A DNA stretch of 64,000 nucleotides from assembly GCA_007115995.1 (NCBI GenBank), contig SKJI01000007.1:8989-72988 (forward strand), in the 5' to 3' direction. Below the pieces are notes generated by a model. That model was not told the DNA's origin. It saw nothing but the letters and a program-made list of their open reading frames with translations, and did no database searches. Shown here piece after piece: positions 1 through 64,000 of the stretch. Every line of letters begins with the position of its first letter. The first letter of the stretch is position 1. The position numbers and the translations under genes are program-made. Origin of the DNA: a candidate division SR1 bacterium. Lineage in GTDB: Bacteria; Patescibacteriota; Gracilibacteria; Absconditabacterales; Absconditicoccaceae.

Positions 1-141
1 TTCATTGAGAAGAAGAGAAGCAAATGAATCCTGAAAAAGAGCACAACCATCATTGAAAACCTGTTATCAATTGAAAAAGCACGTATCAATTTCTGCCAGA
101 TATGTGAGGAGAGCATTATAAACTATGAGAAAATATTGTAA
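1..141 (+). CDS. 3' end of an unidentified CDS (47 codons). The C-terminal C-x2-C may be a DksA/TraR-type zinc-finger tail.
   Basis: Frame 1 is open from the window edge to TAA 139-141, with one in-frame TGA. Translation: ...IENLLSIEKARINFCQICEESIINYEKIL. Confidence 0.3.
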
Positions 142-213
142 AGAGAGAAACGAGCGAATAGTTAATATTCTGTGCTCTCATAGAGTATATGATCTACTGT
201 GTAATAACTATTA

Positions 214-786
214 TTATGTTCATGTTCGCTCTTTTCGAATTGTTTTAATCCTGTCAGTATGAGTAAGAGAAATCTTTGGAGTAGGATGAGGTTGATCAAA
301 CCGTGCTGTGTTTTTTTCGTGTATTCTATGATAGTGTCTTCAAAACGCTCTCGAAGGTAGGTTTATTGCACTATGTGGAAACATATCGAGGATCATTTGC
401 ACAAACGTGTTGCAGTTAGGTCCGGGAAGTGAACTATACGAATGAAGATAGAGAAATCAGGCAAGGTTGTTTTTGAGGAGATGAGCAAGTTGATATGCAT
501 CAGAGTGTTCTCATCAAGCGATTGTGTGTAAGAGTGTTGCTTGATAGAGTCGTTCGTTGTGTCGTGTAAAAATTGGTAATCATGCACCAAACTGAAGATG
601 ATTAATATGCATATATCACCACTGAGGAGATGCTTTATTGAGAAAGTGACGAATTTCATATCTATGGAGGGTGTTGTCAGGATCTTGTGTTTCAATTCGA
701 GTATGGATAGCAATGTTTTGTAGTATTGGGAGTGGACTACTGTAAATACGTACAATTCGTTCTTTTGTAGGAAGAATTACAACCAT
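214..786 (-). CDS. DUF3750-like protein (190 aa)
   Basis: ATG at 786, TAA at 214-216. Continuous only with TGA as sense. Motifs AIHT[CGA]IE...HRYEIRHF and SLPGPNCNTFVQMILDMFP..LPSRAFG match my recollection of DUF3750. Track ORF 393..755 is a different frame and is rejected. Confidence 0.55.
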
Positions 787-893
787 AGCATGCTTGGTCT
801 TGTATAAAAAACATACTTAACTATAATTTTTTTTGTAAGAGAGTCAAACTGTTGCACGATTCTGAGATACATACTTTATTTTCTTGGTCATAT

Positions 894-1775
894 ATGAGTA
901 ACCCTATTATACATACCCCTGTTTTATTTCAAGAAGTGATGCAGTCTTGTCCTGATGATGCTCACTATGTGATGGATGGAACATTGTGACATGGATGACA
1001 TACGTTGTGATTCTTGGCACAGTGACGTACTGTTTTGGGAGTTGATAGAGATCAAGCAATGATTGCAAAGGCAAGGCAGACTATAGACCAGCAGTATTTT
1101 GATGAGAATCGTATTCAGATTGTCCACGGAAGTTATGCTGATTTTGAGCATATTAAGCAACAGACTGGCGTGCAACAGGTTGATTATATACTGATTGATA
1201 TTGGGGTGAATATGGAACATTTTAAGGATGCGTCTCGTGGGTTTAGTATTAAGCATGATGGACCACTTGATATGCGCTATGATACCTCACAGTGACAACC
1301 AGTTGCACTATGGCTTGCCCAAGCAACGTATCAAGATCTTGTAGACAATCTTGTGGAATATGCAGATTTTTCTGAGAAATATATCGATTGGATTGCAAAA
1401 GAACTCGTGCAACATAAAAAATCACATCCTTTTCATACAACCCATGATGTGCGTGATTGCGCAAAAAATCTTGGTATTAACGACAAAAAACTTGCTGTTA
1501 TTTTTCAGTCATGGAGAATTCAGATTAATAATGAACTTGATGAGTTTGATAGATTTTTAGAAACATTTGTAGACTATTTGAGACCATGATGAAGATGTTG
1601 TATTATTACCTATCATAGTGGAGAAGATAGACGTGCAAAAATAGCACTGAAATCACTTGCAAAACAAAATATTTGAATTATACTAACTAAACATGTTATA
1701 AAACCATCATGGCAAGAAATACAAGTAAATAAAGCAGCAAGAAGTGCGAAGATGAGACTATTTGAGAAAATATAA
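894..1775 (+). CDS. rsmH: 16S rRNA (cytosine1402-N4)-methyltransferase RsmH/MraW
   Basis: HTPVLFQEV..DGTL(G)HG(G)HT, with TGA at 987, 996 and 1008 on glycines. Also GPLDMRYD and YHSGEDRRAK. Track ORFs 1035.. and 1353.. are the same frame joined by TGA. Confidence 0.9.
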
Positions 1776-1799
1776 AGTTTTTGATTCCTAATCTTCACA

Positions 1800-2165
1800 A
1801 TGAATAAGCTCGCATTTGTCAAAAGTATGTCTAAACAATACCTATTGATGCAGCATACACTTAGACGCAATAAAAAACTGTTTAGTAGTGCTAAACTTAT
1901 TGTTGTGTCAATAATCTTCTTTTTTGTTGTAGGTGTCTATGCAGTCAATATTACATCAGCATCTACAAAATGATACTTCCATAGAATAGAAACAAGAAAG
2001 CAAGATGCTTTGGTTTTTGAGCGTAGTATTGTTGATTTGGAGGTTTTGCAATTAGAAAAAAGACTGCTCGATAATGTCTGATGAATCAATAGCAGTCGAT
2101 ATGGATCAACAGATCGTATGGTGATTATTCAAACTTATGAAACTGATTTAGTAATGAGACCATAA
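1800..2165 (+). CDS. Small single-pass membrane protein, FtsL-like by position
   Basis: 121 codons directly after rsmH. One hydrophobic helix (LIVVSIIFFFVVGVYAV) followed by a polar/coiled tail. No sequence-level identification. Confidence 0.4.
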
Positions 2166-3196
2166 AACTCTTCCAATAATACTCTGAGTTCGGCGTATTC
2201 CTTTGCTGCAGGAATGCGTTTTTTTATTTCTTTGTTGTACTCCAATCCAGAAATATAATTAAACAAATATTTACGAAATTCACGAGGAGTGTAGTATCCA
2301 TCGTACTTTTCAGGATGTGCATGGATATGATCTGCACGGTTCTCTAACTGGTGGAGTGTTGGCTGTATGAGTATCGTGTGTCCTGTTTTTTCAGTCGATA
2401 GAGCTCGTTCTTTGAAGTATTGTTCTTGTGCCATAGCGAGTGCAAGATGACGAAATATTACAGCAAAACGTTCTTCAACTGATGGAGTTGTTTCTACAAG
2501 TACTCGAGGGTTACCGATTGCGGCTTGCGCGATCATTACGCCATCGAGTGGACCAATACGATCAGCGCAATCTTGATACGTTCTGATTCATCAATTTCAA
2601 ATAATGACTGTATCTGAGCAGGCTTGTTTGAGTTTATAGATAAATGGTCGATCGACTTCACCGCTATGAGATTGTTTATAAGTTCTTCAATGGACACCAA
2701 TCATCCAGACATACTTACTTGCTTCGACTAGAAATGCAAATTGTTCTTCTTTGTCTGCTTCAGTGAGTCATGCTCTTGTTTTGAGACTAAACGGAGTAGT
2801 GATGCTTTGTGCGATCTGCTTGAGAATCTGCAGTGTTTTTTCTTTGTTTTTGAGCATACCGCTTCATGCTTCACATTTCATAATTTTGGGTGATGGACAT
2901 CACATGTTGAGTTCGATTCATCCGAACGAGTAGTGTTGATCAAGCGACTGCGCACATGCAACCAACGTCTCTACATTTCATCAAAAAATCTGTGCAATCA
3001 GTTCTGACTCGTAGTCAGTCTGCAAGAGATGCTTGACGACTCAGACAGGATTATGCATATACCCATCCGCACTCATAAACTCCGTCCAGAGCATCAGCGA
3101 CTCATGCGGTTTCTGATAACGCAAAAAAATCTCTTTACAGATTATTCTGTATGCACAGTCCGTTACTCAATCCATTGGCGCCAATCAAATCTTCAT
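2135..3196 (-). CDS. dus: tRNA-dihydrouridine synthase
   Basis: MKI(G)LAPMD(G)VTDCAYR, ELNM(G)CPSPK, H(G)RTYKQSHSGEVD[CGA]PFIYKLK, AIGNPRVL. 354 codons in one frame with many TGA. Confidence 0.85.
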
Positions 3197-3207
3197 GCTG
3201 TCATTAC

Positions 3208-5524: not shown

Positions 5525-5533
5525 AACTATCTT

Positions 5534-6414: not shown

Positions 6415-7833
6415 ATGACTCTACAACTCATCTTATACAATCAATTGTGAGTACAGTGTTGTCTGCCGTGAGCAGAGCGTTTTTTGTTTTTGTTGTCTGA
6501 AAAAACGCTGAAATCACCGTATGGTCCATTACAGTTCAATCAGTTTTCCAAAGAGATAGAACACAAAGCGAGTCAATGGTTTATCAAACATCTCAACGAG
6601 CAGGGAAAGCAGGCAGATCGAAAGGCAGTAACAAACTATACGCAATGACTTCTTGAGTACTGTCAAGAATATAGTGTCGATACGGTAATGATTATGCAAT
6701 CATCTGAACCATCACTGCAACGTACATTGCAAACAATGCAACACACGCTCAATGAGCATGGTATTTCGATACAGCGACATGAAAATACTCAATTTTTGCT
6801 CTCTCATAGCAGATTTCTCAAACGTTTTCCAAAACCACCAATAATGGAGACGTTTTATCGTTGGATGAGAAAAGAGTTTGATGTTCTCATGGATGGTAAT
6901 GCACCAGTATGATGACAGCGAAATTTTGATAAAGAAAATAGGAAGTTTGACAAACACTATCAAATGCAGCAGACAGAACAATGAGTGTCATATCCGACTT
7001 CTCGTCCTGAAGCAATAGCACTATTACAACAATTCGTTGATAAAAAAATTGATCGTTTTGGTGAGCTTGAGGATGCAATGTACACGCATGATGAGTACGT
7101 TCATCATTCGTTATTAAGTACAAGTATAAATTTCTGATTATTGACACCATGGGAGGTTATTGATGCGATCTCCCAGACTGACACTGCAATCAATAACAAA
7201 GAGTGAGCAATTCGTCAGATTTTGTGACGAAGAGAATATATGTATCACTGGTTTATGTTTTACCATGAGACGATCTATCATGACAATGCACTCAATCATA
7301 CAACACCACTGCCAGATTGGTTTTGGTGGCCAGACGACTCACCGCTCCAGATGTATTGTGTCAACCATGTACTCAAGACGGTCAAACGTACCTGATATAG
7401 CCATCATATTACCAGATTGATGATTATTTGAAATTTTAGTCTATTAATGTGATATAATCCACATGATGTCAATAAACGATTCTGGGAGATGTATGCTGAT
7501 GCATTCGAACGAGTGGTGACACCAAATGTACTCGGTATGTCACAGTTTGTAGATTGATGAAATCTAGCAACAAAGCCGTATATTTCTTCTGCAAACTATA
7601 TCAACAAGATGAGCGATTATTGCAAACATTGTTATTATGACCCTAAACAAAAGGAATGAGAACGTGCATGTCCAATGAACTATCTGTATCGAAATTTTGT
7701 TGAGAAACATCGTAGTTTTTTTGCAAGGCAGCCATATATCGTGAGTAATCTTAAGAAGATTGATATTACCAAGGTCAAACAGCAAGCACAAACATTTATC
7801 AACCAAATAACAACCGTATCCAAGCAATTATAG
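6415..7833 (+). CDS. Cryptochrome/photolyase-related protein of the FeS-BCP / DPRP type
   Basis: (G)(G)Q[CGA]NFDKENRK, ILG[CGA]REYMY, AFE[CGA]VVTPNVLGMSQF, and cysteine pattern C-x87-C-x2-C-x12-C (MYCVNH ... DYCKHC...ACPMNY). Ends at TAG 7831-7833. Confidence 0.8.
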
Positions 7834-12938: not shown

Positions 12939-14471
12939 ATGATACAAGAAACGATACAAGCATGTGCAGATCGTATAAAAAATACTCCGTGATTGAGAGA
13001 GATTCTTGAATTAACATATGCATATGATATTACTGATCATCATATATACTATAATAAAACACTTTTCAAAGAGTTTTCAGATTGTTCACAATGTAAGAGC
13101 TATGACGAATATTATCAGACACTCTCACGTGCATTTGATCAAGTAAAAAATGATATCACTTACTATTACGGTGTTTTTCAAACATTGCAGTCTTTGGATG
13201 TATATACTGCAACAGTTGTGGACATTATGAGCCGTTATTGTGAATATCTTTTGGATATGATACAGATTGCATACACATGATTGCCATTTGAAATAGAAAA
13301 AATGTGATATACATTACCGTTTTGAGAAGAAGAAATACTCCATCGTCTCAAACAGATTGCAGCATGAGAACAAAAACGATTTGGAACGTTAGTCAAAGAC
13401 GATAGATATGAAGCAAGTAGAGTAATATACTATCTTGAAACATCACTCAAAGAACTCTGATTACAAAGATTAACATACGATGAGATCAAACAGTTTACAC
13501 AATACATAAAAATCCTCAAAGAGCAGAGTAAATACTGCAAAGAGTTTTGTGATGATCATGAAGATCATATTGAGTATATCATGACAGGGCAGGAGTATTT
13601 TGCACAACCGATTCATAGGTCGATCTATGTACAAATTTTTGCCCATGTTTTTGCTATATATGGTATCGAAAAGCCGATACGTATAGAAAGTAGATCATCG
13701 ATGTATGATGGTGTTGATGCATTTTGTATTCCTGATAGTCCATGATACGAAACATTATCGTTGCAAAGAGTCTTGGAGTTGGTCTGTCATGAAATAGAAA
13801 TACATTATCTTGTGCAGCATAATTGATCTCTGCTTCTACCGATTACTGATTGAGCAAACTCATTGTTTAAAGAGGAGTGACTTGCCAAGTTTATGGAAGA
13901 GATATTGGATGGTGCGACATTAATCAATATGGATATTACCCCATCAATAATACAATTATTAGCGTGTGAAATTTTGTGATGAGATGATTGTATGCAATTC
14001 TTGAAGATATACTATCGTTTGAGAAATCAACAAGATCAATGGCTTGGATACTTCCTAAGACGCAAAAGAAACTATGCGATTGCATATCCATGAACGCAAC
14101 ACAAAGACATTACTTATAGTAGATGAAGATTTGCTGTGAGATGATATTTAATGGATTGATGAGATTTTCTGTCGCTCTATTATGCTAAAGTTGATTTTCA
14201 TGATATTGCATTATTATCATCTGTGATCTCACAGCAACAAAAACAACACTTGCTTTATCCTTTATTTATCACTGAAAGAGTGCTACATCGTTTACTATGA
14301 GATAAACGTTCATGGGATGATCTGCTCGCAAAAAAATATCCGTTTATTGATTTTGCATCATATCCGTCGTTGGAGCTCAATAAACAACAAACCCATCATA
14401 TCGAAGCAATTATTGGTCTCATTCATGATAATTTACCAATCCCTGATTATTTTCATTCATGAAAAATATAG
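12939..14471 (+). CDS. Second DUF1704/QEGLA-type domain protein (510 aa), a paralog of the C-terminal half of the upstream fusion
   Basis: VCHEIEIHYLVQHN (HE-x3-H) and FKEE(G)LAKFMEE. Starts 9 nt after the previous stop. Confidence 0.6.
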
Positions 14472-15136
14472 AACATCCACCACTTCATCAACTCCGACAG
14501 CGTCACTTAGCAAATGAGCTTTGATCTGACTGGTTTATGGAACTCATGAATCAGCTTGATCAGGTGCGTCAGCAAGGTGAACAACTCTGTCCTGCATATG
14601 ATCAAATATTTGCTGCATGCAATCATACACCGTTGGATAGTATTCGTGTGGTGATTGTTTGACAAGATCCCTATCATGGACCAGGACAAGCACATTGAGT
14701 TGCATTTTCTGTGCCTGATGGTGTGCGTTGTCCGCCATCGTTGAGAAATATCTTCAAGGAACTGCATGATGATTGTGGTATTGAGCCACCGCAATCTGGG
14801 AACTTACTTCGTCGAGCAGAGCAGTGAGTCTTCTTGCTCAATAGTTGTTTGACTGTTTCGATGCACAAGCCAGCATCGCATGCTCATCTCTGACGAGAAC
14901 GTCTGACCGATCGTATGATTCAGCTTGTCGCTGATCAGTGCAAGCATTGTGTGTTTTTATTGCGATGAGCATTTGCACAATCTAAACAACACCTGATAGA
15001 TGCTCAGCAGCATCTTATCTTGACTGCATCGCATCCTTCACCTTTTTCAGCAAGAAGGTGATTTTTTGGTTCACAACACTTTTCGCAAACAAATAATCGG
15101 CTCATCTCGCATGGGTATCAACCAATAGACCGATAG
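14459..15136 (+). CDS. ung: Uracil-DNA glycosylase (family 1)
   Basis: VVIV(G)[11 protein letters not shown](G)[23 protein letters not shown]. Aligns along its length with E. coli Ung as I recall it. The start overlaps the upstream stop by 13 nt. Confidence 0.9.
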
Positions 15137-17366: not shown

Positions 17367-20300
17367 ATGGATCCAAAACATATCACCCAAGCAGTCTTGG
17401 AGTATCGACAAACAACTGATGCGTTTCAGCAATCAATCGTGATCAGATCACCAGCGATGAACTATACGTTTTTTGATGGGCCACCGTTTACAAGTGGAGA
17501 TCCGCATTATGGACATCTTTTGCAATCTACGATCAAAGATATGATTCCTAGATGGATGACTATGCGTGGGTATAGAGTACCGCGTGTATGGTGATGGGAC
17601 TGTCACGGTATTCCAGCAGAAAATTTCGTCAATAAGTCATTGTGAATCAGTTCCAAGAAGCAAATAGAAGAAGAGGTAGGAATAGAATCATATATAGAAG
17701 CATGTAGAAGTATGGTCAATAATGTCAATGAAAACTGGTCCAAAGTTGTCGATCAGTTATGACGTTGGGTTGATATGGATAATGCATATTTCACCATGGA
17801 CAATGCATATATGGAAACGGTGATCAATATATTTTCAGATCTCTATCACAGAAATCTGATCTATAAGGGATTTAAAGTGTTGTGATACTCTTGGGCGTTG
17901 TGAACATCACTATCAAATCATGAAATCAACGAATGATACGAGATGAGACAAGATCCAGCCGTGACGATTGCGTTTCCTGCACTGACGGTCTGAGAGCATG
18001 ATCGTTTTCAAACAAGCGAGCTCGGTGCAGTGCAATGTGTTGCATGAGTGATAGAGCAAGATGGAAAATTGCTTCAAGTCTATGATACAAGATCATCAGT
18101 CTGGTATTATCCATGATGAAAAGTTGAGAAAGGTGAAACGAAAGAACAAGCACTTGCAAGAGAAATTAACGAAGAGATTTGAGTAACCGTTACAACGAGT
18201 ACGTTGCTTGGTGTCTTGCATGTGCCGTTTCGTGGTATTCTTTATGAATTATCGTATTTTTCTGTAACGATTGATGGAGTGCCAACAAACTGTGAACCTG
18301 ATAAGCAAGGTGCTGTCGAATGGGTCGAGCAGATACCATTCGATAATGAACTCTGATTTGCACTCAAAGTAGGTGATTTGCTCTTAGACGATCGCAAACA
18401 AATCGAGCATGATTTCAAGGATTATTTTTTCATAAAAAATAAATACTACGAACTTCCGTGATTATCGAGTATGATTCCATCGATGCTTGCACGAACAACA
18501 ACGCCGTGGACGCTTCCATCTAATATGTTTCTCGCAGTCAATGCTTCTATTTGGTATGCAGTGGTATACGATCATGAAAAACAAGCATTGTTTATCATCG
18601 CTCAAGAAGCGCTTGATCGTGTCTATCCAGACAAGAAAGCATATCAAGTGTTGTTTGTCACATCATGATCTCACTTGGTGGGATTAAAATATGAGCCACC
18701 GTTTTCATACTATCATGACGATGAGACGATCGCAAACGAGTATAAACAACAAGTACATCGTGTAGTTCATGCTGATTTTGTGACAACTGATGCAGGGACC
18801 GGAATCGCCCATGAAGCACCTGCGTTTGGTGAAGATGATTATAATCTAGTCTGTACGATCTTACCCAAAGATCACGCGCAAGACTGGTTGTTTGATCCAA
18901 TTGATGATCATGGATCGTTTACTGATTGTGCGCCTGATCGATCATGAATGAATGTAATCGAAGCAAATAAACTGATTATTGCACATCTTAAACAAACAGG
19001 GAGATTATTTAAACATGAAACAATCAATCATAGTTATCCGCACTGTCCGCGTACAGGGACACCGCTGATCTACAAAGCAATTCAATCTCGATTTGTCCAA
19101 GAAGAAGACCTCAAAACACAGACAATCCCAGCTGCAGAACAGATGCGTTTTGTACCAGACTCTATCAAGAAAAGATTTATCAATGGGCTTGAATCAGCAC
19201 CAGACTGGAATATATCAAGAAGTAGATATTGGTGATGTCCGTTACCTGTCTGGGAAAATCCTGATAATCCAGAAGAAAGACTCGTCGTCTGATCACTTGA
19301 TGAGATATTTCAATACAATAAGCCTGCACAACAACTCACCAAGGTGATCTTTGTGAGACATGGGAGAACTGACTATAATGACAAAAAACGAGTTGACTGT
19401 CTTCCAGCTGACAAAGCACAACTCAATGAACTGTGACGTCAACAAGCTGCGTTACTGCCTGAACATTTTGCGTGAGTACAGATTGATCATATCTATTCGT
19501 CACCGATGAGTAGATGTAAAGAGATGATAGCACCATTAGCAGCAGAGCGTGATTGCACTGTGCACTATGATGAGAGAATACAAGAAATTGGAAATTATGG
19601 CTTTCAAGACAAAGTGTTTGATTGTAGCACTATCTCATGGAACGACCAGCCAGTAGATGGTGCAAGCGGTGAGAGTATACAAGCCGTTGCAACAAGGGTC
19701 GAAGCGTTTTTCCAAGAGATCGTTGCAAAGCACCCATGAGCGTGTGTGGTGATTTGTTCACATGGTGATCCTATAGCATTGATGAGAAAAATGATCTACC
19801 AAAAAGACTATGCATATGCAAAATCACGTTTGTATCTTGATAATAAATCGCTCGAGCAATTGCCTGTCTGTGTCGATTATGTACGGCCTGAAACAGGACA
19901 GTATGTTGATTTACATAGACCGTATATTGATACAGTACTGTTACATCATCCAGAGACGGGGCATATTCTGCAGAGAATACCAGAAGTTCTTGATTGTTGG
20001 TTTGAGTCGTGAAGTATGCCATTTGCACAGCATCATCGATTGAAATCTGAACAGTCTGATGAGACCGTACCAGTCGCTGATTTTATTGCAGAATGACTCG
20101 ATCAGACGAGATGATGGTTTAGAGCATTGTATGTGTTGTGACATGCGTATGTGTGACAATCAGTCTATACTGATACTGTTGTGACGGGACTAATTCTCGC
20201 TGAAGACGGAAAGAAAATGTCCAAAAGACTCAATAATTTCCCAAATCCATTGGAGTTATTAGATCAGTATGGTGCAGATCCACTGAGATTGTACTTGTTT

Positions 20301-21383
20301 GCATCACCGGTAGTCAGAGCAGAAACGTTGAGGTTTGCTCAGTCTGGTGTCGAACAGATGTTTAAGGACGTGGTAATTCCACTCCATAACGTCTGGAATT
20401 TTTTGAGTACATACGCTGCTGTTGATGCATGGAAACCAGCAGAAAGTACAGTCTATTTTATGAGACATGCACATTGTCATCATACTGAAGAATCACCAAG
20501 AACGAACGAAACACCTATCAGTAAGCTCTGACAGCAACAACTCCAAGAACAATCGTTTATCGAAGAAGTGTTGAGAGTAAACCCTGATATTATCATCACA
20601 TCACCTGTCCAAAGAACACAAGATACAGCTGCTGCAGTCCAAAATATCCTTGATCGTTATCTCTGAAAAACTGTTGAAATCCGTATTACCGATGATTTAT
20701 CAAGATGAATGACAGAAGAAAATGCTGGAGATATTATACAACGCTTCCAAGAGCAGTATCCATGACAAACTATCCTGTTGGTTAGTCACAAAAAAAGATT
20801 CCGTATGCTGCGAAAAGTCTTGACTGGTTATGAGCATTCTGTGCATACGCATGAGATGATGGAGCAGTTGTTACTTGAAAATACTCAGATTGTGCCGATT
20901 CCATTGCAGCTCATACATAATGAATTAGATCAGTGGATATATGCAGAGTTGCATCGTGTTATTATGCTTGTTGATGAACATCTTGCATCATATGCAATAG
21001 AGCATGCTACCAAAGTGTTGATAGGATTTGTCGATAGTTTGACGAACTGGTATGTGCGTAGATCAAGAAGAAGGTTTTGGGCTTCAGGTATGGAACAAGA
21101 TAAGCGTAGTGCATACCAAACGTTATGGGATGTGTTACAGACCTACTTGCGTCTTTTGGCACCGTTTGCACCGTTTACGAGTGAGTATCTTTGGCAAGCT
21201 ATGCAGATGCCATGATCAGTCCATCATGCTTCTTGGCCAATCTGATCAAAACAACGAATTAATCAACAACTTCTTGAAGAAGTAGAGTGTGTAAGAAAAA
21301 TAATTTCTTGAGCAATGTACATAAGGGCAAAGAATCAGATAAAAATCAAACAACCATTATCATCGTTGGAATTTTCATTTTAG
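17367..21383 (+). CDS. ileS: Isoleucyl-tRNA synthetase (type 2, eukaryote-like class I core) carrying three in-frame inserted domains
   Basis: [13 protein letters not shown], (G)WDCHGIP, LA[CGA][19 protein letters not shown](G)CPLPVW, CWFES(G)SMPFAQ, E(G)LDQTR(G)[26 protein letters not shown]. Eight track ORFs are all frame 0. I verified 17580-18480, 19200-19515 and 19980-20190 codon by codon and found no TAA/TAG. Confidence 0.9.
17991..18470 (+). other. Nudix hydrolase domain inserted in IleRS, just before the [11 protein letters not shown] segment
   Basis: Perfect Nudix box G-x5-E-x7-REUxEExGU: (G)[20 protein letters not shown](G)V at 18117-18185. Confidence 0.75.
19341..19900 (+). other. 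Histidine-phosphatase (phosphoglycerate-mutase-like) domain inserted in IleRS
   Basis: [13 protein letters not shown] (RHG at 19356-19364), ..[12 protein letters not shown].., [10 protein letters not shown]. Lies between LDEIFQYNK and DLHRPYID of the IleRS core. Confidence 0.65.
20455..20900 (+). other. Second, more divergent histidine-phosphatase/SixA-like domain inserted in IleRS
   Basis: [10 protein letters not shown] (RHA at 20463-20471), [22 protein letters not shown]. Lies between DAWKP and [11 protein letters not shown] of the anticodon-binding region. Confidence 0.45.
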
Positions 21384-25969: not shown

Positions 25970-26308
25970 ATGCAAACAACCAAAGACGTTATCATAGAAC
26001 TCACCAACCATATTCCATACTGACGTTTTTCAACGTATTGATCTCTTGCAACACAAGCCAGTATTATATTATGAAAAAATATTACCCCTAGAGTAGTCGG
26101 ACGGATACTCTCTTCGATGAAAGAAGATGAGCGAGATTGTTTACCACGATGGAGGGTAGTTAACAGCCGTGGATATATCTCTGCCATGAAGCTGTGAGAA
26201 AAATGATTGATTCAGATGCAGCAGTTACTAAAAGAATGAGTACAGGTTGATACCCATACTCATTCTCTTAAAGATTTTTCAGATTATGTGTGGTATTTTG
26301 TTGCATAA
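25970..26308 (+). CDS. MGMT-family DNA-binding domain protein (YbaZ/alkyltransferase-like, no PCHR active site)
   Basis: IPY(G)RFSTY(G)SLA...PRVV(G)RIL...LP[CGA]WRVVNSRGYIS. Confidence 0.7.
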
Positions 26309-31033: not shown

Positions 31034-31885
31034 TTACAAACATCAATTATGTTGTAACCAGAGATCTCTTGGATGTCATTCTGGAATATTTGTACATGGA
31101 TCATCTATTCATAGCATGTCTGCTGGTCATCATGTATGAGTTCATTCGTTGAGCGTACATCAGTTATGTTCTAATCGTAGTGCTTCATGTCCTATTGCTT
31201 TTGCTCGTTCTGGTACTATACAATCTTGTGTTCAGCGTAATGGAGTTACTGGATTGTTTGGCATATAGAGAAAGAGCAACGATACAACAATAATAAATAC
31301 TCATACAATACTTGCATGCGTTGTTGTAATGTATTGGATTGGTTCTTTGTGTTGTCTTTCACAGACTCATCATGGACAATATTGTGCTGTATCCTTGTTG
31401 AATACATTATATAATTCACATCATATACAAATTCCAAATACTGTTTCAAAAAATAAAAATATCAAACAAAGTCCACAGATGATAAAATTTATGGGACTTG
31501 CTGTGTTGAGTATAACAAGCAAGACAAACATGATGCTTGCAAGTATCAATCATAACGATCGTGCAAATCTTTTTTGTGGTGCACCAGTATATTCTACTGT
31601 TTGATGACTAGTACATAGTCTTCAGAGTATCATCGTTGGTGCATACAGAGGATTAATCAGTAATCTTATAACAAAATCTATAAAGAAAATCGTTACAAAA
31701 ATTTTGATTGGAAAGAAATTTCAGAGTGTAAACGCATAAAAAAAACTAATCAGTGCTCCGGTAAATAAAAGACCAGATGCAGATCTAGCTTCCCTTTCAT
31801 TAAGTACTGGAATATCATATCAAGGTACACGTTCTCAAAAGTTGAAAAAATATCTAATAGGTAGAAGGTGATAAGAGAGTAAAAC
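31034..31885 (-). CDS. DUF4395-like membrane protein with a Cys/His-rich C-terminal extension; start codon unresolved
   Basis: IFFIDFVIRLLINPLYAP..., KRFA[CGA]SL(G)LIL, FETVFGICI(G)CELY, then two copies of ..L-W-L-[E/Q]-H-N-(G)-C. The frame is open from the csoR stop (31886) with no ATG/GTG/TTG before Met 31633. Confidence 0.55.
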
Positions 31886-32510: not shown

Positions 32511-33914
32511 ATGACGCATCAAACACAAGAAGATATCGCATTGCGTAAGGCACTTGATAGTGCAGATGATTTTAGGTACAGTCATCAGATCAGCGGACTC
32601 AATGAAGAAACAGTGAGAGCTATCTCTGCACACCTCAACGAGCCACAACGAATGTTGGAACATAGGTTACGTTCATTGGAGTTATTTCTTTCTATGCCTA
32701 TGCCATCATGGTGACCAGATTTATCAAGTATCAACTTTGATGAGTTAGTCTATTATGCATCACCAGAGCAGTCTGAGATCCAGCAAGATTGGGACAAGGT
32801 CGATCCGCTCATTAAGGAGAAATTTGCGAGATTATGAATTCCAGAAGCTGAACAGCGTTATCTTGCATGAGCATGATGACAGATGGACTCTGAGGTTGTC
32901 TATCACAAGATCAAAGAGAAGCGAGCAGAGCAGTGAGTTATTTTTGAGGATATGTCAGAAGCGTTGATTCACCACGAGGAGTTGGTCAAAAAATACTTTA
33001 TGAAGCTGATTCCAGCCAACGATCATAAATTTATGGCATTGCATGGAGCAGTATGGAGTGGAGGGACGTTTATTTATGTCCCCCAATGAGTACAGGTCAA
33101 CGAACCGTTGCAAGCATATTTTCGTATGAACTCGTTGAGTGGTGGACAGTTTGAACATACGTTGATTATTGTGGATGATGATGCGCAGTGTGATTATATA
33201 GAATGATGTAGCGCACCTAAATTTAACACTAGATCATTGCATGCATGAGGTGTGGAAGTATATGTCTGAAAGAGAGCGAAAATGCGTTACTCATCGGTAG
33301 AAAATTGGTCGATCAACACCTACAATCTCAATACAAAACGTGGTATCGTAGAAGACGATGGATTCCTCGAACGAGTCAACTGAAATCTAGGATCTGGCGT
33401 TACGATGTTATATCCATGTAGTATTTTGAAATGAGACAGATCTCGCTCAGATCAGCTTGGTGTTGCTGTGGCAGCGAAATGACAAAACCAAGATACAGGA
33501 TCCAAAGTTATTCATATTTGAAAAGATACAGCATCGACCATCGTTTCTAAATCGATCTCAAAAGATTGATGAATTGCAACATACAGAGGAATTGTCGATA
33601 TTAAAAAATCAGCGCAGTGAGCAATCAACTGAACTGAATGTGACGCATTACTGATGGATGATCAATCTATCAGTACAACGATACCTCATATTCACGTCGG
33701 GAATGACTCCTCAACAGTCGCTCACGAAGCAAGTGCATGAAAGGTAGACGACACAATGCTCTTTTACCTTATGTCTCGTGGCTTGAGTGAAGAAAAAGCA
33801 ATGACTATGGTCGTCAATGGCTTTATCTCAGATGTCGTCAAAAAACTACCCCTAGAATACGCATGAGAACTTAATCGTCTGATTGAGATGGAAATGGAAT
33901 GATCAGTAGGATAG
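32511..33914 (+). CDS. sufB: Fe-S cluster assembly protein SufB
   Basis: NEPQ[CGA]MLEHRL, PMPSW(G)[17 protein letters not shown](G)V, QAYFRMN, YIE(G)CSAP, VENWS, LE[CGA]VN(G)NLGS, HEASA(G)[18 protein letters not shown](G)ELNRLI. An alternative TTG start lies at 32505. Confidence 0.92.
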
Positions 33915-41325: not shown

Positions 41326-41450
41326 GTAGATAGATATCGGAACGTTTTTGTATCAAGCATATAATACCGTGCAGAGAGAATATTGTGCTTTTCTTTCTCT
41401 GTAAAAAATACTACCTACAATTTTTCTTTTATATTGTTAAGTAATGAGTT

Positions 41451-41890
41451 ATGAATATGGATAAATTTGATAGTACATATGCATTCTTACTTCAAGATGT
41501 TCATTTGCAAGAGTGAGACTTTAATCCTGATTGTATTAAAAAAATACAGTGATTATTGAGGATATTAAAAATAATTTGCTTGAAAACGTTTGAAAAAATA
41601 ACCTTGATAAAATTTTAGGTTATCAACTTCTTAAAGCAATCAACCAAATCTTATCAAAAAAGATAAAAGATTTAAAAGATTGACCTGTTACATCCCATGT
41701 GTGCGAATTATCTCTTGATTTTTATTTGATTCGTGAACAATTAGAAAATGTTATGGAAGAATTGAGTATTCAAGAATCCCTTGTCCAAGTAAGACTAAAT
41801 TCACATAAGGACTTGAGTCCTGAACAAAAAAAATCGTTACAAAATCTTAGAGTAGAGGTATATAATATGATGCAGTGAGTTGATATGTAA
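41451..41890 (+). CDS. Hypothetical protein encoded in two overlapping frames (41451-41618 and 41549-41890) that join with a -1 shift at an A7 tract
   Basis: A7 at 41538-41544. Frame 0 stops at TAG 41616. Frame 2 is open from 41543 to TAA 41888. Unidentified coiled-coil-like sequence. Confidence 0.3.
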
Positions 41891-41937
41891 ACTATGCAAT
41901 GACATATTGAAAATATCTATGATTGACAGAAAGTATA

Positions 41938-42093
41938 AGGCATCTCTGAAAAATTACTTTTAAAACGACTATATACAATAATTATGTATCATTCTATTTA
42001 TAGGATTGTATGTAATATAGAGGTTCCTTGAGGAAGGTTTTCATGTAGGAAAAATTTTATTTCATTAAATTTTATCCTTTTTTCATACCTTCC
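41938..42093 (+). repeat. Copy 2 of the ~156-nt structured intergenic element
   Basis: aggcatctct / agaggttcct and ggaaggt / accttcc arms. Collinear with copy 1. Confidence 0.6.
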
Positions 42094-42151
42094 ATAAGAT
42101 TAGAATATATAAGCTTTAATAAAACATATTTACATAGTACTAATAAAAAAT

Positions 42152-50907: not shown

Positions 50908-52953
50908 ATGTTTAGACAAGTAGGTTTTTTTTCTTTTCTTTTTTTCTTGAAGCTTGCATGCTGATATTTTTTCTCGTTTCCTGTATCTGCATCTACAGTA
51001 GTTTGATCTCTTAATCTACAGACTCGCCAAGAACGATGAGCAGATGAATCATTGAGATATGGAAGATGAGCAACAGTGACAACAAGCTTTAATCAAGAAG
51101 GAGATCAAACTGATTCAACAGCACCACTCAATAATCAAGAAAAAAATATTGTGAGAACAAGATTTCTCCAAGAGCAATTCCCACAATATATAATGCCAAC
51201 GCGTATTGAAACACATGAGTGATCAAATCGTTTGAGATGGCCATTACAGTATACCCCCAAAACATGAATTATATTACATCATACGGCTGATGGATTTGTA
51301 TACGAGTATCCACAACAAACATATCAGTATATTCGTGATATTTATCACTCACATGCTCGCCAAAGAAACCGATGAGATATTTGATATAATTATCTTATAG
51401 ATCCATTTGGCAATACATTTGAGTGAAGGGCTTGATGACCTACTGTTGCATGAGCGCATACTGCATGGAATAATGCAACAACAATATGAGTATCATTGAT
51501 GTGAAATTATCATCTTAGACAACCTTCACAAGCTATGTGGTCTGCACTTGTTAATCTGCTGACATACTTATCTGTAACATATGAAATCAATCCATGAGAT
51601 CGTCACACGTACTTTGAGGCAACAGACCAGTACCCGTTTATTGAAGTACTCAATAATTATGCATTAATAGGGCATAGAGATGCTTGAGACACTGTGTGTC
51701 CTGGTCAGTATGTCTATGCTGAGTTACCATCATTGAGAATGGAAATTATCCAGCGTTTACAACGATTAGATAGTCATGGTATTGAAGAGCTGCAGCTGGA
51801 AAATTTTGTACGTCGTGTAGAACCATTTATTCTATCAGGAGATACTGGAGTGTTGCGGTTTGATCGTCTCAACAATCATGCTGTATCATGCAAAAGTTTT
51901 ACTGCATCACAAGCTATAAGTTCCTGTCATTTGTTATGAGAAAAAATTCTCATCACTATACCGTATGTATGAGCTGGTTCATCTTGAAGACTTTCGTTAT
52001 GAATACAGCAATGACCAGCAGTACAGTTTTTGGATGTAGCTATAGTGTGGGAACAAGAATTTACTGAGTCGTTTTTACAAGATCATAATGCGCAGGTATC
52101 TTCAGCATTGAAACAAGATCAAGCCGTGCCTTTATCAGCACTATGGCATCATATGCAATCACCCATTTCTGTTTTATTGTATCAACCAACCGCTACGCTC
52201 AACACATGGGAATTTAGCTGTACGTGAACATGTACAGTGCTTGCAGGAGAGAGGTTTGTGCATAATCCATCTCATATACGTGTAGCAAAGGCAGGAGATC
52301 AAAGATTACAAATAATTATAGATGATGAGTTGATCTGGGCGCAGAGTTTTGGTATCAGTACTCTCTGATGAGAGATAATATTAGAAAATTTTACAAGAGC
52401 GGAACACTGAACTGCATTAAATAGGTTTCAGTGATCAATAACTATTACGTCTTCAAAACGACAAGATTTACAGTGAATACTTCATGAGTGATTTATTGTT
52501 GTCAATACCCTTGCTTTGGATGAGTATCTCCATGGTGTCTCAGAGTGGTCAGAACACTATACTGATCAAACATTAGAACTATTGGCAATACTTGCAAGAC
52601 AGTTTGCGTTATTATATCGTTCAGGAGCTATAAGGCATCCTGCAATACCACAATGAGTATGATATCATAGTATTGATCATCCTGAACTGTTTCAGTGATA
52701 TGTTTGAATATGACAAAAGGACTATGCTCAAAGACGATGAAGAGCAGTAGAAGCAAGTAGAGGAAAGTATGTCCTTCTTGAAGATAATGCAGTAAGACTT
52801 ATGCCCTTACTTCGCTATAAATCATGACTTTCTAGAGGCACAACTCTTGGGTTACGTGATGTTGATTATTGGTTGCATCAATGAGTATTGGCTCAAAGAG
52901 TGCTTGATCGATTTATGCCTGGTGTAACAATTGTTTCATGATATCTCTTTTAG
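50908..52953 (+). CDS. Secreted N-acetylmuramoyl-L-alanine amidase (Amidase_2/PGRP) fused to a SpoIID/LytB domain
   Basis: IILHHTA, HARQRN[CGA](G)DI(G)YNYLIDPFGNTFE(G)RA(G)(G), (G)AHTAWNN, L(M)(G)NY. Later VVNTLALDEYLHGVSEWSEHY and ARQFALLY. Confidence 0.8.
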
Positions 52954-56199: not shown

Positions 56200-56203
56200 A
56201 CTT

Positions 56204-58061: not shown

Positions 58062-59723
<1,662 letters not shown>

Positions 59724-59899
59724 TTCAGACTGTAAAGCATTTATCATAAAAAATGAGTAGTCAACTATTTTTTTCTAGAAAATACACTTGTAAATTATAC
59801 TCTGAATGAAGAGATTACTAATTTTGCTCTTTGCACTGTTTTCAGTATACTAAGAGTACTGATAATAGAATAATTTTTATTTGTAGTGAAGTTTGCTTG

Positions 59900-62368
59900 A
59901 TGATATTATCAATTGCTGAGCGTTTATGATGAGTACTTGCATCGATCTTTGGTACAAAGCAATCACAGAATAATTCTATATGTTTTGAAATTATCCCATA
60001 CAAAGAAAATGAGTTTGGGCAAGCACATTGGTGATCATTCCTTGCAAATTTTTCTAGTTTTCAGGAACATCTCTATTTTTCAATCGAATGAAACACGAAG
60101 CAGATCAAACTCTTTATGTATGCGCCAGAAAGCTATCAAGAATACATAAGAAATATTTTTTATGCAACATTTCCTACCAGTGATATAAAAATTCACCCAC
60201 AAAAATCACTCAAAAAACACCCATCTAATCTTAAATTTTCTCATGACAGTGTGTTTTATGAAACACATGAATTTATGAAATGATGAGAATATGTTGATCC
60301 ATTCAAAGATGTTCTTTCGCTTTTTTGATCAATTCCTCAAGAATGAACACTTTCGTTACTATATAGTTGTCAATTTAAGGTAAAAAAGACTTTTTTTCAA
60401 AAATGTTTAGCGTTGCGAAAGAAATTTTTTAGTAACGATAAAAGTGAAAAAAACACAAATGATAAAGAAGAAGTAAGTCAACAAGAAAATGTAAAAAAAG
60501 TTTGAAAAGATGTAATATTTGCTTTACAGTATTTTTTACATTTAGATCCGCAATGATATATAAATAAAGTAAATACAGACATTAATCATGTTTTTGATAA
60601 ATTTTTACAACAAGGAACAGTAAAGCCATCACAGTCTATTCATTGGGTGAGTACTAACTTAGATGCATTTATCAATCTCTTTCATATCCCAACTAAATCA
60701 TTCTTAAACAATACTTTACATTATATTCCATATCGTAAGTTAGAACATCCTGTTAATTTGCCAATGTTATCAAATACATCAAGTGATGATCTAACTATTT
60801 TATGAAAAACAGAATACAAAAACCAATGAATTGAGTTTGGTATCAAAACAGAAGATAAGTTTAGACATGTATATATTGTGTGAAAAACGTGAATGTGAAA
60901 ATCTACATTCATTTCAAATATGGTGAGAAGTGATATGCAGACTAATCATTGATTAGCAGTGATTGATCCTCATGGCGATCTTATTGATGATGTATTAGTA
61001 CATATTCCATCTCATCGTATCAATGATGTTGTGGTTTTTGATGTGAGTGATACTGCATATCCTGTCTGATTTAATATTTTGGAATTTAATACTCCTGAAG
61101 AAAAAACGCTCGTAGCATCTGCTGTTGTTTCAATCTTCAAAAAACTCTTTGCGCACAGTCGATGACCAAGATTAGAGTACATCCTCAGAAACGTTATGTT
61201 GTCTGTGCTTGACTATCCAAATACAACATTGATGCATGTGATGCGTATGCTCAACGACAAAAAATTTAGAGAAGAAGTATTGACACACGTATCTGATCCA
61301 GTTGTGATGAAATTTTGGAGAGATGAGTATGACAAACGACAACCAAGACAAGTTCAAGAGGCAGTCTGACCGATCGCAAACAAAATTTGACAGTTTTTAT
61401 CATCTCCAGTTGTGAGGAATATTTTTGCTCAGCCCAAGAGTAGTTTGCAGTTAAGAAAAATTATGGATGAAGGGAAAATATTGCTTATTAATCTTTCTAA
61501 ATGAAAGATATGAGAAGATAATGCGAGTATGCTGTGATCTTTTCTTGTCTCTAAATTCCAAATTGATGCTATGTCTAGAGCTGATGTAGATTATAATATG
61601 AGAAAAGATTTTTATTTGTATATTGATGAGTTTCAAAACTTTGCAACTGACTCATTTGAAAGTATCTTATCAGAAGCAAGAAAGTATCGTTTATCATTGA
61701 TTGTTGCAAATCAGTATACTTCTCAAATTCAAGAAAATGTCAGAAATGCAATTTTTGGGAATGTCGGGACTATCGTGAGTTTTGGTCTGTGATATGATGA
61801 TGCAATGCTTATGTCTCAACAGTTCAAAGAGCTTATTTCTCCCAATGATTTACTTTCATTGCCTAAATTTAAAGCATATGTAAAGCTTATGGTTGATTGA
61901 GTTACTACTGACCCTTTTACTATGGGGACATTTCCTCTACCATTACCTGAATCATGACCAGAAATTAAAGAAAAAATTCTCAAACAGTCAAGACAGCGTT
62001 ATGCAACTGAAAGAGAAAAACTTGAGTCGCTCTTGCAAGCTCGAATGGAAAAGCAGTTTACAGAGTCAGAAAAAGTCATCGAGAAAGTGCAACAAGAAAC
62101 TCTCAAACAAGATGGTACAACATTTAGTATAGATGATTTAAAAGTATGAGAACGATATGACTGATATGTGAAGCTAAAATATAATTATTGATTATTTGTG
62201 ACTGTAAAAGGTGTAGAGTGATTATTACATAAATCGTTGGTTAAGGTGCCAGACACCTTATCATCATGGAAAGACTTGTATGTTATTTGAGATAAGATAT
62301 CTGTCAAGGTTGACTGATTCAAAGAAATTGAGTGAGAAAAGAAAATTGTTTGGACGCAAAAAGATTAG
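59900..62368 (+). CDS. VirD4/TraD-type coupling-protein-like P-loop ATPase, paralog 2, with a C-terminal S1 RNA-binding domain (822 aa)
   Basis: Walker A HVYIV(G)KT(G)M(G)KSTF, VIDPHGDL, LLINLSK(G)KI(G), FYLYIDEFQNFATDSFESILSEARKYRLSLIVANQYTSQ. Tail V(G)E[CGA]YD(G)YVKLKYNY(G)LFVTVKGVE(G)LLHKSLV...V(I)(G)DKISVKVD. Codon-checked over 59939-60900. Confidence 0.75.
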
Positions 62369-62477
62369 TGAGAGCATTTTTTGAAAAAAAAGCAATAAAC
62401 ACAAGGAAAAATTTATTGCAAAACATTGATAAAATAGTACTGTTGATAAATACTCAGTTTATTATTTTTCTTATTTC

Positions 62478-64000
62478 ATGACTTTTTCTAAAAAATACTC
62501 TCCTTCATTTGAATCAGATATATATACATATCGAGAGCAGCATGGTGTATTTAAGCCTAAAGCATCGAAATGATGAGAAAGGTTTGTTACATTATTACCA
62601 CCTCCAAATGTTACGGGAAATTTACATCTTGGACATAGTATAATGTGTGCTATTCAAGATGTTATGGTGAGATATAATCGTATGAATCAAAAGGAAACAG
62701 TATGGATACCTGGAACTGATCACGCATCGATCTCCACACAGGTTGTTGTCGAAAAAATGTTAAGAGAGCAAGGTATACACAAAGAAGACCTTGGCAGAGA
62801 GAAATTTCTTGCAAAAGTTTGGGAACGAGTAACACAAACAAGATCAACTATCGTATCACAAATCAGATCAATGTGAGCATCAATTGATCGAGAGAGAGAA
62901 CAGTTTACAATGTCTGAAGCACTTTCACGTGGTGTGAGACATGCCTTCAAAAAACTATATGATCAATGAACAATTTATAAGTGAGACTATATGGTCAATC
63001 GATCTCCTGGTGCACAAACAGTCTTATCTGATCTTGAAGTTGAAAATAAAGAAATAAAAACAAAAATGTATTTTATAAGATATTTTTTACAATGAAAAGG
63101 AGATGCAATTACAGTTGCTACAATTCGTCCAGAAACTATTTTTGCTGATGTTGCTCTAGCAGTTCATCCCAAAGACAGAAGGTACAAAAAATACATTGGT
63201 AAAAATGTACTTATTCCTATTATCAATAGACCAATTCCAGTTATTCCAGATGAAAATGTACAGATAGAATTTGGAACGTGAGCGCTCAAAATTACTCCAA
63301 CGCATTCTGAAATCGATTATGATATCGCTAAAGTACATGAACTTCCTATGAATATTTATGCGTTTGATAAAAATAATATATATACTGATCAGGCATGAGA
63401 AGATTTTGCCTGAAAAAATGTTTATGAGTTTATGGAAAATCTTGTGTATCATTTACAAGAAATTTGAAATATAGAAAAGATAGAAGATTATGAAACCACT
63501 ATACCAGTTTGTGAAAGAACTTGAGTAACCGTACAACCATTACTTTCAAAACAGTGGTTTATGGGTGTAAAGAGATCTGCAGAAGTTGTTTATAATGCTT
63601 TTGAAAACGAACAAGTAGCAGTACATCCACCAAAATTCCAAAAAACATTTCTAAACTGGCTTGAAGATATTAGACCATGGTGCATTTCTAGACAGCTCTG
63701 GTGGTGACATAGAATACCTGTCCGATATACTGATAATTGAGAAAAACTTTGTTTTGATGAGACAAATGTATTGCAGCATAATACTTGAATCTATCAAATT
63801 TTATCAATGATTATTTTTAATTGTATAGCTGATAGTCGTTTAACGAATCCATTCTCATTGGAATCGTTACTAGACTTACTTACTCAAACAAGTATTGTTG
63901 AGGCAAACGGTCGTGTGATTGATGTGTATTGTGCGATTTATAAAGAAAAATACAAAGATGACCCTATTTTACTTAATGAAATTACTCTCTTGGAGTCGTT
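62478..64000 (+). CDS. valS: Valyl-tRNA synthetase, 5' part (runs off the window)
   Basis: [35 protein letters not shown][CGA], SID[CGA]ERE, MVN[CGA][33 protein letters not shown](G)HRIPV[CGA]Y. Confidence 0.92.

Follow-up and report, generated by a model that had tools for sequence, protein, structure and literature searches.

Sense-codon reassignments are, to our knowledge, very rare in bacteria. A stop-codon change is established for the SR1 and Gracilibacteria lineages, in which UGA is read as Gly under NCBI translation table 25 (Campbell, 2013; Rinke, 2013). A further change, CGA and CGG to Trp, was predicted computationally for Absconditabacterales with Codetta, CGA being assigned to Trp in 10 of the 10 genomes tabulated, all of which have zero tRNA(ACG) genes (Shulgina and Eddy, 2021, eLife 10:e71402, PMC8629427). 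The sequence-only reading of the DNA described here had pointed to this report, and correctly so. The Trp identity elements given for the tRNA(UCG) and tRNA(CCG) of the group are G73, the lack of A20 and an A/G1:U72 pair (Shulgina and Eddy, 2021, PMC8629427).

The window, meaning the whole stretch of 64,000 nt that was analyzed, contains 55 genes when called under code 25. TGA is a sense codon in this DNA. Open reading frames stay intact only when TGA is read through, the longest growing from 308 aa under code 11 to 1343 aa, and the window has 744 in-frame TGA codons, read as Gly. Columns aligned with TGA hold Gly in 64% (ValRS) and 56% (IleRS) of the outgroup residues. Translation table 4 (UGA as Trp) was rejected, since Gly dominates the TGA columns of unrecoded references and Trp is not among their six commonest residues. 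CGA and CGG occur in 39 of the 55 genes, with 116 and 9 codons, respectively; among all codons of the called genes CGA reaches 60 per 10,000, while CGG is rare (4.7 per 10,000). The Trp content of the window genes is 0.85% counting TGG alone and 1.50% once CGA/CGG are added, these two codons then making up 43% of the inferred Trp codons. The GC content is 35%, and Arg is written mostly AGA, with CGT in second place; under the proposed code, Arg would be encoded by AGA, AGG, CGU and CGC only.

The nearest GTDB genomes are Candidatus Absconditabacterales MAGs, with 57% and 53% identity in the best segment, and the IleRS of the window is at most 57% identical to that of any GTDB species representative. 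The architecture of this IleRS, with NUDIX and His_Phos inserts, is common to SR1 homologues. By this similarity argument the DNA would belong to Absconditabacterales, and its source is very probably a divergent SR1/Absconditabacterales member with a doubly altered code, predicted as UGA for Gly plus CGA/CGG for Trp. The features that bear on the second change are the following:

2135..3196, minus strand: dihydrouridine synthase (Dus), with CGA at 2648-2650 and 2504-2506 (aa 231) and one further, unaligned CGA
6415..7833, plus strand: FeS-BCP/(6-4) photolyase-related protein, with seven CGA (6619, 6775, 6919, 7228, 7477, 7510, 7690)
14459..15136, plus strand: uracil-DNA glycosylase (UDG), with CGA at 14495, 14813, 14894, 14963 and 15131, and CGG at 15098
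17367..21383, plus strand: IleRS with NUDIX and two His_Phos inserts, with eight CGA and one CGG; Trp sites 17406, 18492, 19089 and 20811
25970..26308, plus strand: MGMT-like DNA_binding_1 protein (g23), with CGG at 26102 and CGA at 26132 and 26147
31058..31060, minus strand: TGG in the second copy of the DUF4395 tail motif, L-W-L-Q-H-N-G-C (internal control)
31175..31177, minus strand: CGA in the first copy of the duplicated DUF4395 tail motif, L-x-L-E-H-N-G-C (internal control)
32511..33914, plus strand: SufB, with CGA at 32649, 32922 and 33372
50908..52953, plus strand: Amidase_2/SpoIID protein, with CGA 51370 in an N-x-GDIGYNY motif
58062..59723, plus strand: MetRS, with CGA at 58332, 59142, 59409, 59460 and 59604, CGG at 58893, and an Arg CGT at 58875
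62478..63998, plus strand: ValRS, N-terminal part, continuing past the window end, with CGA at 62532, 62826, 62889, 63000 and 63723

The 24 codons on which the sequence-only reading had built its case are all in frame and of the kind claimed (24/24). When CGA/CGG sites were aligned to homologues from standard-code organisms or with solved structures, 35 could be assessed: 24 (23 of them CGA) fall on Trp columns, 5 on columns that are Tyr/Phe or of mixed aromatic type, and 6 on aliphatic or variable ones, with no site on an Arg column; CGT, AGA and AGG fall on Arg columns. Trp occupies roughly 1-2% of protein positions, and 24 of 35 sites would be far more than chance provides. That CGA always stands at an invariant Trp, as had been claimed, was an overstatement; about one third of the assessable sites are variable aromatic or hydrophobic positions, which probably separate the possible readings only weakly.

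All five CGA of ValRS correspond to W in unrecoded references (5/5), in agreement with the claim made for them, and among 70 distant homologues these columns hold W in 83%, Y in 11%, F in 5% and R in 0%. For IleRS, the conserved Trp proposed at 18492 was confirmed in a standard-code outgroup set (61/62), as were 17406 (47/48) and 19089 (61/63), and 20811 is TGG in 10 of 11 SR1 relatives; 19389 and CGG 19884 lie in regions of variable sequence. MetRS positions 58332, 59460 and CGG 58893, also proposed as Trp, are W in both PDB structures, 59460 by way of a weak second-domain alignment, while 59142 aligns with I/L and 59409 with I/A. The Arg of the RFH motif of MetRS is CGT (58875), consistent with the proposal that conserved Arg residues are written in this way.

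When UDG, MetRS, SufB, Dus and the photolyase-like protein were aligned with PDB structures, 16 masked sites had W opposite them and no masked site had Arg. Most of the positions predicted as Trp in these proteins were borne out: Dus 2648-2650, together with 2504-2506, is W in structure 1vhn; SufB 32649 and 33372 are W in the E. coli SufB structures, with L at 32922; and photolyase-like 6919, 7228 and 7510, as well as 7477 and 7690, are W in two of two solved homologues, 6775 lying in an alignment gap. UDG agreed in part, with W at 14813, 14894 and 14963 in three of three solved enzymes, and at 14495 in the sole alignment reaching that site, but with Leu/Tyr/Tyr opposite CGG 15098; CGA 15131 is the terminal codon and lies outside the alignments. 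The parallel drawn between CGG and CGA stood at MetRS 58893 and was weaker at UDG 15098. Among the nine CGG codons, two are clear Trp sites (MetRS 58893 and g23 26102), none is Arg, UDG 15098 is aromatic/Leu, and the others are uninformative. For the MGMT-like protein no PDB match was found, and the Trp proposed at 26147 is a weaker case, based on SR1 orthologues with TGG twice and CGA once; these orthologues also have TGG twice and CGA once at 26102, and CGA three times at 26132.

One alternative is that CGA and CGG still encode Arg and that the lineage swapped many conserved Trp residues for Arg. Table 25 assigns both codons to Arg, and SR1 relatives have R at these positions in their database translations. 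The absence of Arg from the 35 assessable columns, 24 of them Trp, speaks against it, and so do the Pfam scores: reading CGA/CGG as Trp in ten proteins raised the summed scores of the top families by about 90 bits, whereas the control of reading CGT as Trp lowered them by about 46 bits and lost one family match. The gain is visible in ValRS (tRNA-synt_1, 246.8 to 277.2 bits), IleRS (365 to 384), MetRS (262.6 to 274.5), Dus (148.3 to 158.4) and the photolyase-like protein (DPRP, 90.5 to 101). Close relatives, moreover, alternate TGG and CGA at the same site. In 16 SR1 relatives, window CGR codons face TGG in 49 cases, CGR in 41 and another Arg codon in one, whereas other Arg codons of the window face other Arg codons 646 times, TGG once and CGR three times (Fisher p = 4e-73 for this codon-class matrix). 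The exchange runs in both directions, TGG of the window IleRS facing CGG in SR1 relatives 14 times, and SufB orthologues of SR1 having TGG, CGA or CGG at the CGA sites of the window. The internal control pointed out in the DUF4395 repeat is also correct, one copy having CGA where the other has TGG. Together with the Trp-type CGR tRNAs of relatives described below, these data effectively refute standard decoding, which we regard as extremely unlikely.

It might also be asked whether CGA encodes another aromatic residue, Tyr or Phe. Relatives have Tyr/Phe at IleRS 18939, 20037 and 21255, photolyase-like 6619 aligns with Y, and amidase 51370, which had been proposed as Trp, lies in an aromatic column (G-[YW]-x-D-[IV]-GYNF) where, of three PGRP structures, two have Tyr and one has Trp. 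The best-conserved sites, in contrast, are W at 83-98% with Y/F as a minority, CGA exchanges mainly with TGG within the clade, and the candidate CGR tRNAs resemble tRNA-Trp and have G73; a Tyr or Phe meaning of CGA is accordingly given hardly any credence. Even less probable is an artefact, either editing of CGA to UGG in mRNA or sequencing/assembly error, for which no support was found: dozens of assemblies, made independently in different studies, show the same pattern, and editing would have to alter two letters in each of 125 codons, a less simple route than dedicated tRNAs. Gly at TGA columns and Trp at CGA columns bear out the proposal of a second reassignment, CGA/CGG from Arg to Trp, atop UGA as Gly. 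From the alignments, this Trp reading in the window appears real and well supported, and it was already known as a prediction.

No tRNA genes were found in the 64,000-nt window. A pattern search of metagenomes yielded 39 tRNA(UCG) and 24 tRNA(CCG) on 62 TGA-recoded, low-GC contigs; these tRNAs have a Trp-type acceptor stem and G73 and lack A20. The first two features had been required by the pattern and are in part a product of the search; the missing A20, the resemblance to tRNA-Trp and the tandem arrangement had not been required. The contigs carrying CGR tRNAs place CGR at TGG positions of the window. A true tRNA-Arg(GCG), on contig L194, has an A20-type D-loop and shares only 38-52% identity with the CGR tRNAs. 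In the proposed mechanism, tRNAs with UCG and CCG anticodons on a tRNA-Trp body (A1:U72, G2:C71, G3:C70, discriminator G73, no A20), as seen in relatives, would be loaded with Trp by tryptophanyl-tRNA synthetase, which would have to accept anticodons departing from CCA at position 34, position 36 or both. According to the literature, CGA and CGG would be read by no Arg-accepting tRNA, because the group is without tRNA-Arg(ACG/ICG) and tRNA-Arg(GCG) covers only CGU/CGC. Throughout the clade, CGA and TGG would then be synonyms for Trp that replace each other freely.

Ambiguous decoding of CGA/CGG as both Trp and Arg, through competing tRNAs or mischarged CGR tRNAs, would represent an intermediate of reassignment. 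Ambiguous translation is allowed for by Shulgina and Eddy (2021, PMC8629427), in whose table CGG was inferred to be Arg for one genome, and the search pattern used here was blind to any coexisting Arg-type tRNA(UCG). However, CGR stands at invariant catalytic-core Trp positions of essential enzymes, it faces Arg codons of relatives in just 1 of 177 cases, and frequent Arg reading would be very costly where CGR supplies 43% of Trp codons. Dual decoding is thus considered improbable, and unambiguous Trp is preferred.

How the CGR tRNAs arose may be indicated by contig L138, syntenic with the window, where tRNA-Trp(CCA) and tRNA(CCG) lie 61 nt apart with 74% identity. The tRNA(CCG) has the appearance of a tRNA-Trp(CCA) copied in tandem and altered by one A36-to-G change. 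As a tentative route, one that we would not yet favor, tandem duplication would have produced tRNA(CCG), which would retain A37 after the single anticodon change, followed by a second, more diverged UCG family that would have acquired G37, the base usual for codons starting with C. If this route is true, the TrpRS of the clade would have relaxed anticodon recognition. Such a route was not seen in the literature examined on this code. When 17 TGA-recoded lineages are compared by their IleRS, those that use UGA more for Gly write a smaller share of their Trp with CGA/CGG (rho -0.78), a hint of interaction between the two reassignments, perhaps by a wobble conflict in the UGA/UGG box.

With the Arg-to-Trp change stacked on the stop-codon reassignment, three codons are changed in the code of this lineage. 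Annotation under table 25 gives 39 of the 55 window proteins Arg at inferred Trp sites, often in the catalytic core, and the same misreading is present in database translations of relatives, weakening homology scores, structure predictions and phylogenies of the entire clade. No translation table encoding CGA/CGG as Trp is mentioned in the literature examined on this code, and a table-prediction tool from 2026 covers tables 4, 11 and 25 only.

Among known codes, table 25 shares UGA as Gly with the window and differs in keeping CGA/CGG as Arg. A sister TGA-recoded lineage (L073, L077 and L078, possibly BD1-5/Gracilibacteria-like) shares UGA as Gly, low GC and a homologous IleRS, but this enzyme has 0-2 CGA/CGG against 22-25 TGG, with TGG at the CGA Trp sites of the window; it looks like a stage of near codon loss and not of recapture. 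Anaerococcus and RFN20 Bacilli, in whose codes only CGG is Trp, resemble the window in having a low GC content and an Arg CGN codon captured by a Trp-type tRNA(CCG), this tRNA being predicted for the window; there, however, CGA is Arg through tRNA-Arg ICG, tRNA(UCG) is lacking and UGA is a stop, whereas the window has UGA as Gly and CGA as its principal reassigned codon. A CGG-only code was rejected for the window, given CGA on Trp columns and TGA as Gly. The Absconditabacteria (SR1) code is matched by UGA as Gly and by CGA/CGG at conserved Trp columns, as well as by the preference for AGA and then CGT as Arg codons, the scarcity of CGG, the Trp-type tRNA(UCG) and tRNA(CCG) of relatives and the Absconditabacterales MAGs as nearest GTDB genomes. 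The GC content (35%) lies within the 0.29-0.38 of SR1 code genomes, and the 43% CGR share of Trp codons within the approximately 16-61% calculated from the published table (Shulgina and Eddy, 2021, PMC8629427); CGA, at 60 per 10,000 of all codons, compares with fewer than 37 in Pfam-aligned columns in that paper, two measures that are not directly comparable. The window adds no new principle and shows no essential difference from the published Absconditabacteria (SR1) code, of which it provides a clean example with strong support.

The window has a GC content of about 35%, and its longest stop-to-stop open reading frame measures 1343 aa with TGA read through versus 308 aa under code 11, so TGA must be a sense codon here. 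Under code 25 (UGA=Gly, with CGA and CGG still Arg), 55 non-overlapping genes were called, covering 90% of the window. This is an ordinary chromosomal housekeeping set, including IleRS, ValRS, MetRS, UDG, SufB/SufC, Dus, GyrB, DnaN, FtsA, FtsZ and RsmH, and, among others, an FeS-BCP photolyase-like protein. The called genes contain 744 TGA, 163 TGG, 116 CGA and 9 CGG codons, alongside 244 CGT, 31 CGC, 430 AGA and 50 AGG.

The sequence-only reading had proposed that CGA and CGG (together, CGR) fall on invariant tryptophan positions, as a second reassignment besides UGA=Gly. Every coordinate that it cited is an in-frame codon of the type claimed, including those of Dus and DUF4395 on the minus strand, and the CGT reported at 58875 is likewise present and in frame. 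All CGA and CGG codons were masked as X ahead of alignment, to guard against bias. For ValRS, the reference consisted of 70 distant homologues, mainly eukaryotic or from unrelated bacteria; these came from a concatenated six-protein query that matched only long ValRS fusion proteins, apparently through a length filter. The five CGA columns of ValRS held W in 83%, Y in 11%, F in 5% and R in 0% of cases, as compared with W 91% at TGG, R 71% at CGT, R 54% at AGA, R 55% at AGG and G 64% at TGA columns. For IleRS, a GTDB genome scan gave 80 loci, of which 64 formed a standard-code outgroup by a TGA threshold. This outgroup carries W at the CGA sites 17406 (47/48), 18492 (61/62) and 19089 (61/63), and the lone R at each of them probably belongs to L053, an SR1-like genome misplaced by that threshold. 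Other sites were compared with solved structures.

CGA and CGG codons of the window and the residue at the same position in solved structures
14495, 14813, 14894, 14963: CGA in UDG, Trp
58332 (CGA), 58893 (CGG), 59460 (CGA): MetRS, Trp; 59460 lies within a weak second-domain alignment
32649, 33372: CGA in SufB, Trp
2648-2650, 2504-2506, minus strand: CGA in Dus, Trp
6919, 7228, 7477, 7510, 7690: CGA in the photolyase-like protein, Trp
51370: CGA in the amidase, Tyr/Tyr/Trp

For the MGMT-like protein, no PDB entry matched below the cutoff of E = 1e-6. The duplicated DUF4395 tail, offered as an internal control, does show the exchange, with CGA at 31175-31177 in L-x-L-E-H-N-G-C and TGG at 31058-31060 in L-W-L-Q-H-N-G-C. 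Altogether, 35 CGA/CGG sites could be assessed: 24 fall on Trp columns, 5 on Tyr/Phe or mixed aromatic columns and 6 on columns that are aliphatic or variable; no site falls on an Arg column. The wording "invariant tryptophan" thus suits about two thirds of the sites (24/35), the remainder being less conserved positions.

Ten proteins were scored against Pfam under three readings, namely CGA/CGG as Arg, CGA/CGG as Trp and, as a control, CGT as Trp. Reading Trp instead of Arg raised the top-family scores of ValRS (+30.4 bits), IleRS (+19), MetRS (+11.9), DPRP (+10.5), Dus (+10.1), SufB (+4.8) and UDG (+4.0), and three weakly conserved proteins shifted by about 0 bits. The net gain over the ten proteins was about +90 bits, and a MetRS anticodon-domain match appeared under the Trp reading only. 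The secondary domains His_Phos_1, SufBD_N and S1 each fell by about 2 bits, the size expected for a rare residue at an unconserved position. In the CGT control, each top-family score fell, by about 46 bits in sum, and one family match was lost.

The IleRS gene (17367-21383) encodes 1338 aa, a length due to insertions: a NUDIX domain at aa 228-320 and a pair of histidine-phosphatase (His_Phos_1) domains. In a search of 5.8 billion database proteins the nearest IleRS were only 48-56% identical; they have the same unusual combination of NUDIX and His_Phos inserts, and the label of one reads candidate division SR1. Among the 120 matches listed, nearly all SR1 IleRS homologues have the NUDIX domain and most have His_Phos_1 too. 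At CGA sites of the window, the database translations of these matches are split between R and W (60/58, 61/59 and 50/66), and R makes up 23% at the TGG sites of the window. This pattern is what the same recoding leaves behind when annotation pipelines mistranslate it. Public translations of the SR1 clade carry systematic errors. The SR1-type IleRS entries P0071-P0190 have R at Trp positions; W also accounts for about 10% of their residues opposite the window's TGA codons, which suggests that some entries were called under code 4.

Codon exchange was also followed in the DNA of 16 SR1-like relatives, at orthologous positions of IleRS and flanking orthologues; ValRS and MetRS were left out because of contaminating ValRS-versus-IleRS paralogue matches.

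Codons of 16 SR1-like relatives opposite each codon class of the window
Window CGA/CGG: TGG 49, CGA/CGG 41, other Arg 1, Tyr/Phe 48
Window TGG: TGG 187, CGA/CGG 122, other Arg 4, Tyr/Phe 65
Window AGA/AGG/CGT/CGC: TGG 1, CGA/CGG 3, other Arg 646, Tyr/Phe 22

The Fisher test gives p = 4e-73 for these counts, which are not phylogenetically independent. Judged from these DNA comparisons, CGA and CGG appear to have left the arginine codon family across the clade and to belong now to that of tryptophan.

The use of CGA varies among TGA-recoded relatives. Three IleRS genes (L073, L077 and L078) have 52-65 TGA and 0-2 CGA/CGG codons, with TGG at the CGA Trp sites of the window; theirs looks like a lineage in which CGA is almost extinct, resembling a codon-capture intermediate. 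The L053 IleRS (CAMVOC010000004.1, 10001-13987) has 28 CGA/CGG versus 8 TGG and only 4 TGA codons, and there CGA appears to be the dominant Trp codon, with UGA-Gly scarcely used. Over 17 TGA-recoded lineages, the more TGA(Gly) codons this one gene has, the smaller tends to be the part of its Trp codons written CGA/CGG (Spearman rho -0.78, p = 2e-4, without phylogenetic correction), and the same holds inside the SR1-like set (rho -0.61, p = 0.02). The idea that heavy UGA-Gly use drives Trp codons toward CGA was rejected, since the IleRS data have the opposite sign.

Over the whole 64 kb, ARAGORN found no tRNA and no Rfam family scored above threshold. The 826 bp downstream of ftsZ (41326-42151) have no called gene, their sole ORF being one of 117 aa (41540-41890). 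A further 85 loci centred on IleRS, taken from relatives and outgroups, likewise gave no UCG, CCG or CCA tRNA with ARAGORN. Metagenomes were searched with a pattern of AGGG...CCCT ends plus G73, a standard T-loop and a UCG or CCG anticodon; such acceptor ends are near-universal in bacterial tRNA-Trp. At least 120 loci matched. Among the matches listed, 62 loci are low-GC contigs with long ORFs only when TGA is read through, and on these ARAGORN called 39 tRNA(UCG) and 24 tRNA(CCG).

On contig L138, a canonical tRNA-Trp(CCA) and a tRNA(CCG) stand in tandem, 61 nt apart and 74% identical, with the D-arm and anticodon-arm core in common. This contig is syntenic with the window (DnaN, a gene like window gene g34, FtsA, FtsZ and UDG, at 41-66% protein identity), and about 4 kb separate its ftsZ from the tRNA pair downstream; the window has no detectable tRNA in this neighbourhood or elsewhere. 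On L194, a tRNA(UCG) adjoins a genuine tRNA-Arg(GCG); the latter pairs G1 with C72, its D-loop is of the A20 type, and its identity to the CGR tRNAs is just 38-52%. In the UCG family (L092 5153-5223 and other loci), position 20 is C or T and the anticodon loop, CUUCGGA, contains G37, as tRNAs reading C-initial codons typically do. The CCG family (L086, L087 and others) has A37 and the loop CUCCGAA, as in tRNA-Trp(CCA). A CCG tRNA on L170 was not picked by the search pattern, yet has A1:U72 and G73. On the tRNA-bearing contigs, window TGG stands opposite CGR 17 times, and window CGR stands opposite CGR 14 times and TGG twice, without a single match to another Arg codon. The acceptor-stem features were preset by the search pattern. 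What counts as independent evidence is that A20 is lacking, that the tRNAs resemble tRNA-Trp, that they can stand in tandem with it, and that their host contigs are recoded. The CGR tRNAs would be charged by TrpRS, and a competing Arg tRNA would be absent.

Similar tRNAs also occur elsewhere. L094 (2577-2649) and L125 (2653-2725) carry CCG tRNAs with a Trp-type acceptor, G73 and a tRNA-Trp-like body on contigs of GC 0.63-0.66 that are not TGA-recoded, that of L125 adjoining a Thr-Gly-Tyr-Thr tRNA cluster; these may be Trp-like tRNAs that read CGG beyond the low-GC clades known so far, or else Arg tRNAs of an unusual kind. On L095 (28 tRNAs in 6 kb), L136 (with a tRNA-Arg(ACG) as well), L093, L110 and L169, Trp-acceptor-type tRNA(UCG/CCG) lie within dense arrays that look like those of phages or mobile elements; they may include a tRNA carried by a phage for recoding or suppression.

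The observation that CGA and CGG fall on Trp positions is real and very strongly supported, and the interpretation proved correct on the Trp columns, the Pfam gain and the codon swaps in relatives. The phenomenon is already published. CGA=Trp was inferred by Codetta in all ten Absconditabacterales genomes listed, with UGA=Gly alongside, CGG being assigned to Trp, undetermined or Arg, and consistent tRNAs and low GC were described (Shulgina and Eddy, 2021). The reassignment is taken as established by a 2026 NAR paper, whose supplements hold no Absconditabacterales tRNA sequences, and by a 2026 k-mer preprint; a 2026 table-prediction tool covers tables 4, 11 and 25 only. The window has 60 CGA per 10,000 codons and the published genomes under 37, figures that are not directly comparable because the former counts all codons of called genes and the latter Pfam-aligned columns. 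The figures of the window agree with those published: its GC of 0.35 is inside the range of the published Absconditabacterales genomes, CGG is rare, as it is in them, and the CGR share of Trp codons is 43% here and about 16-61% there, as calculated from the table of that paper.
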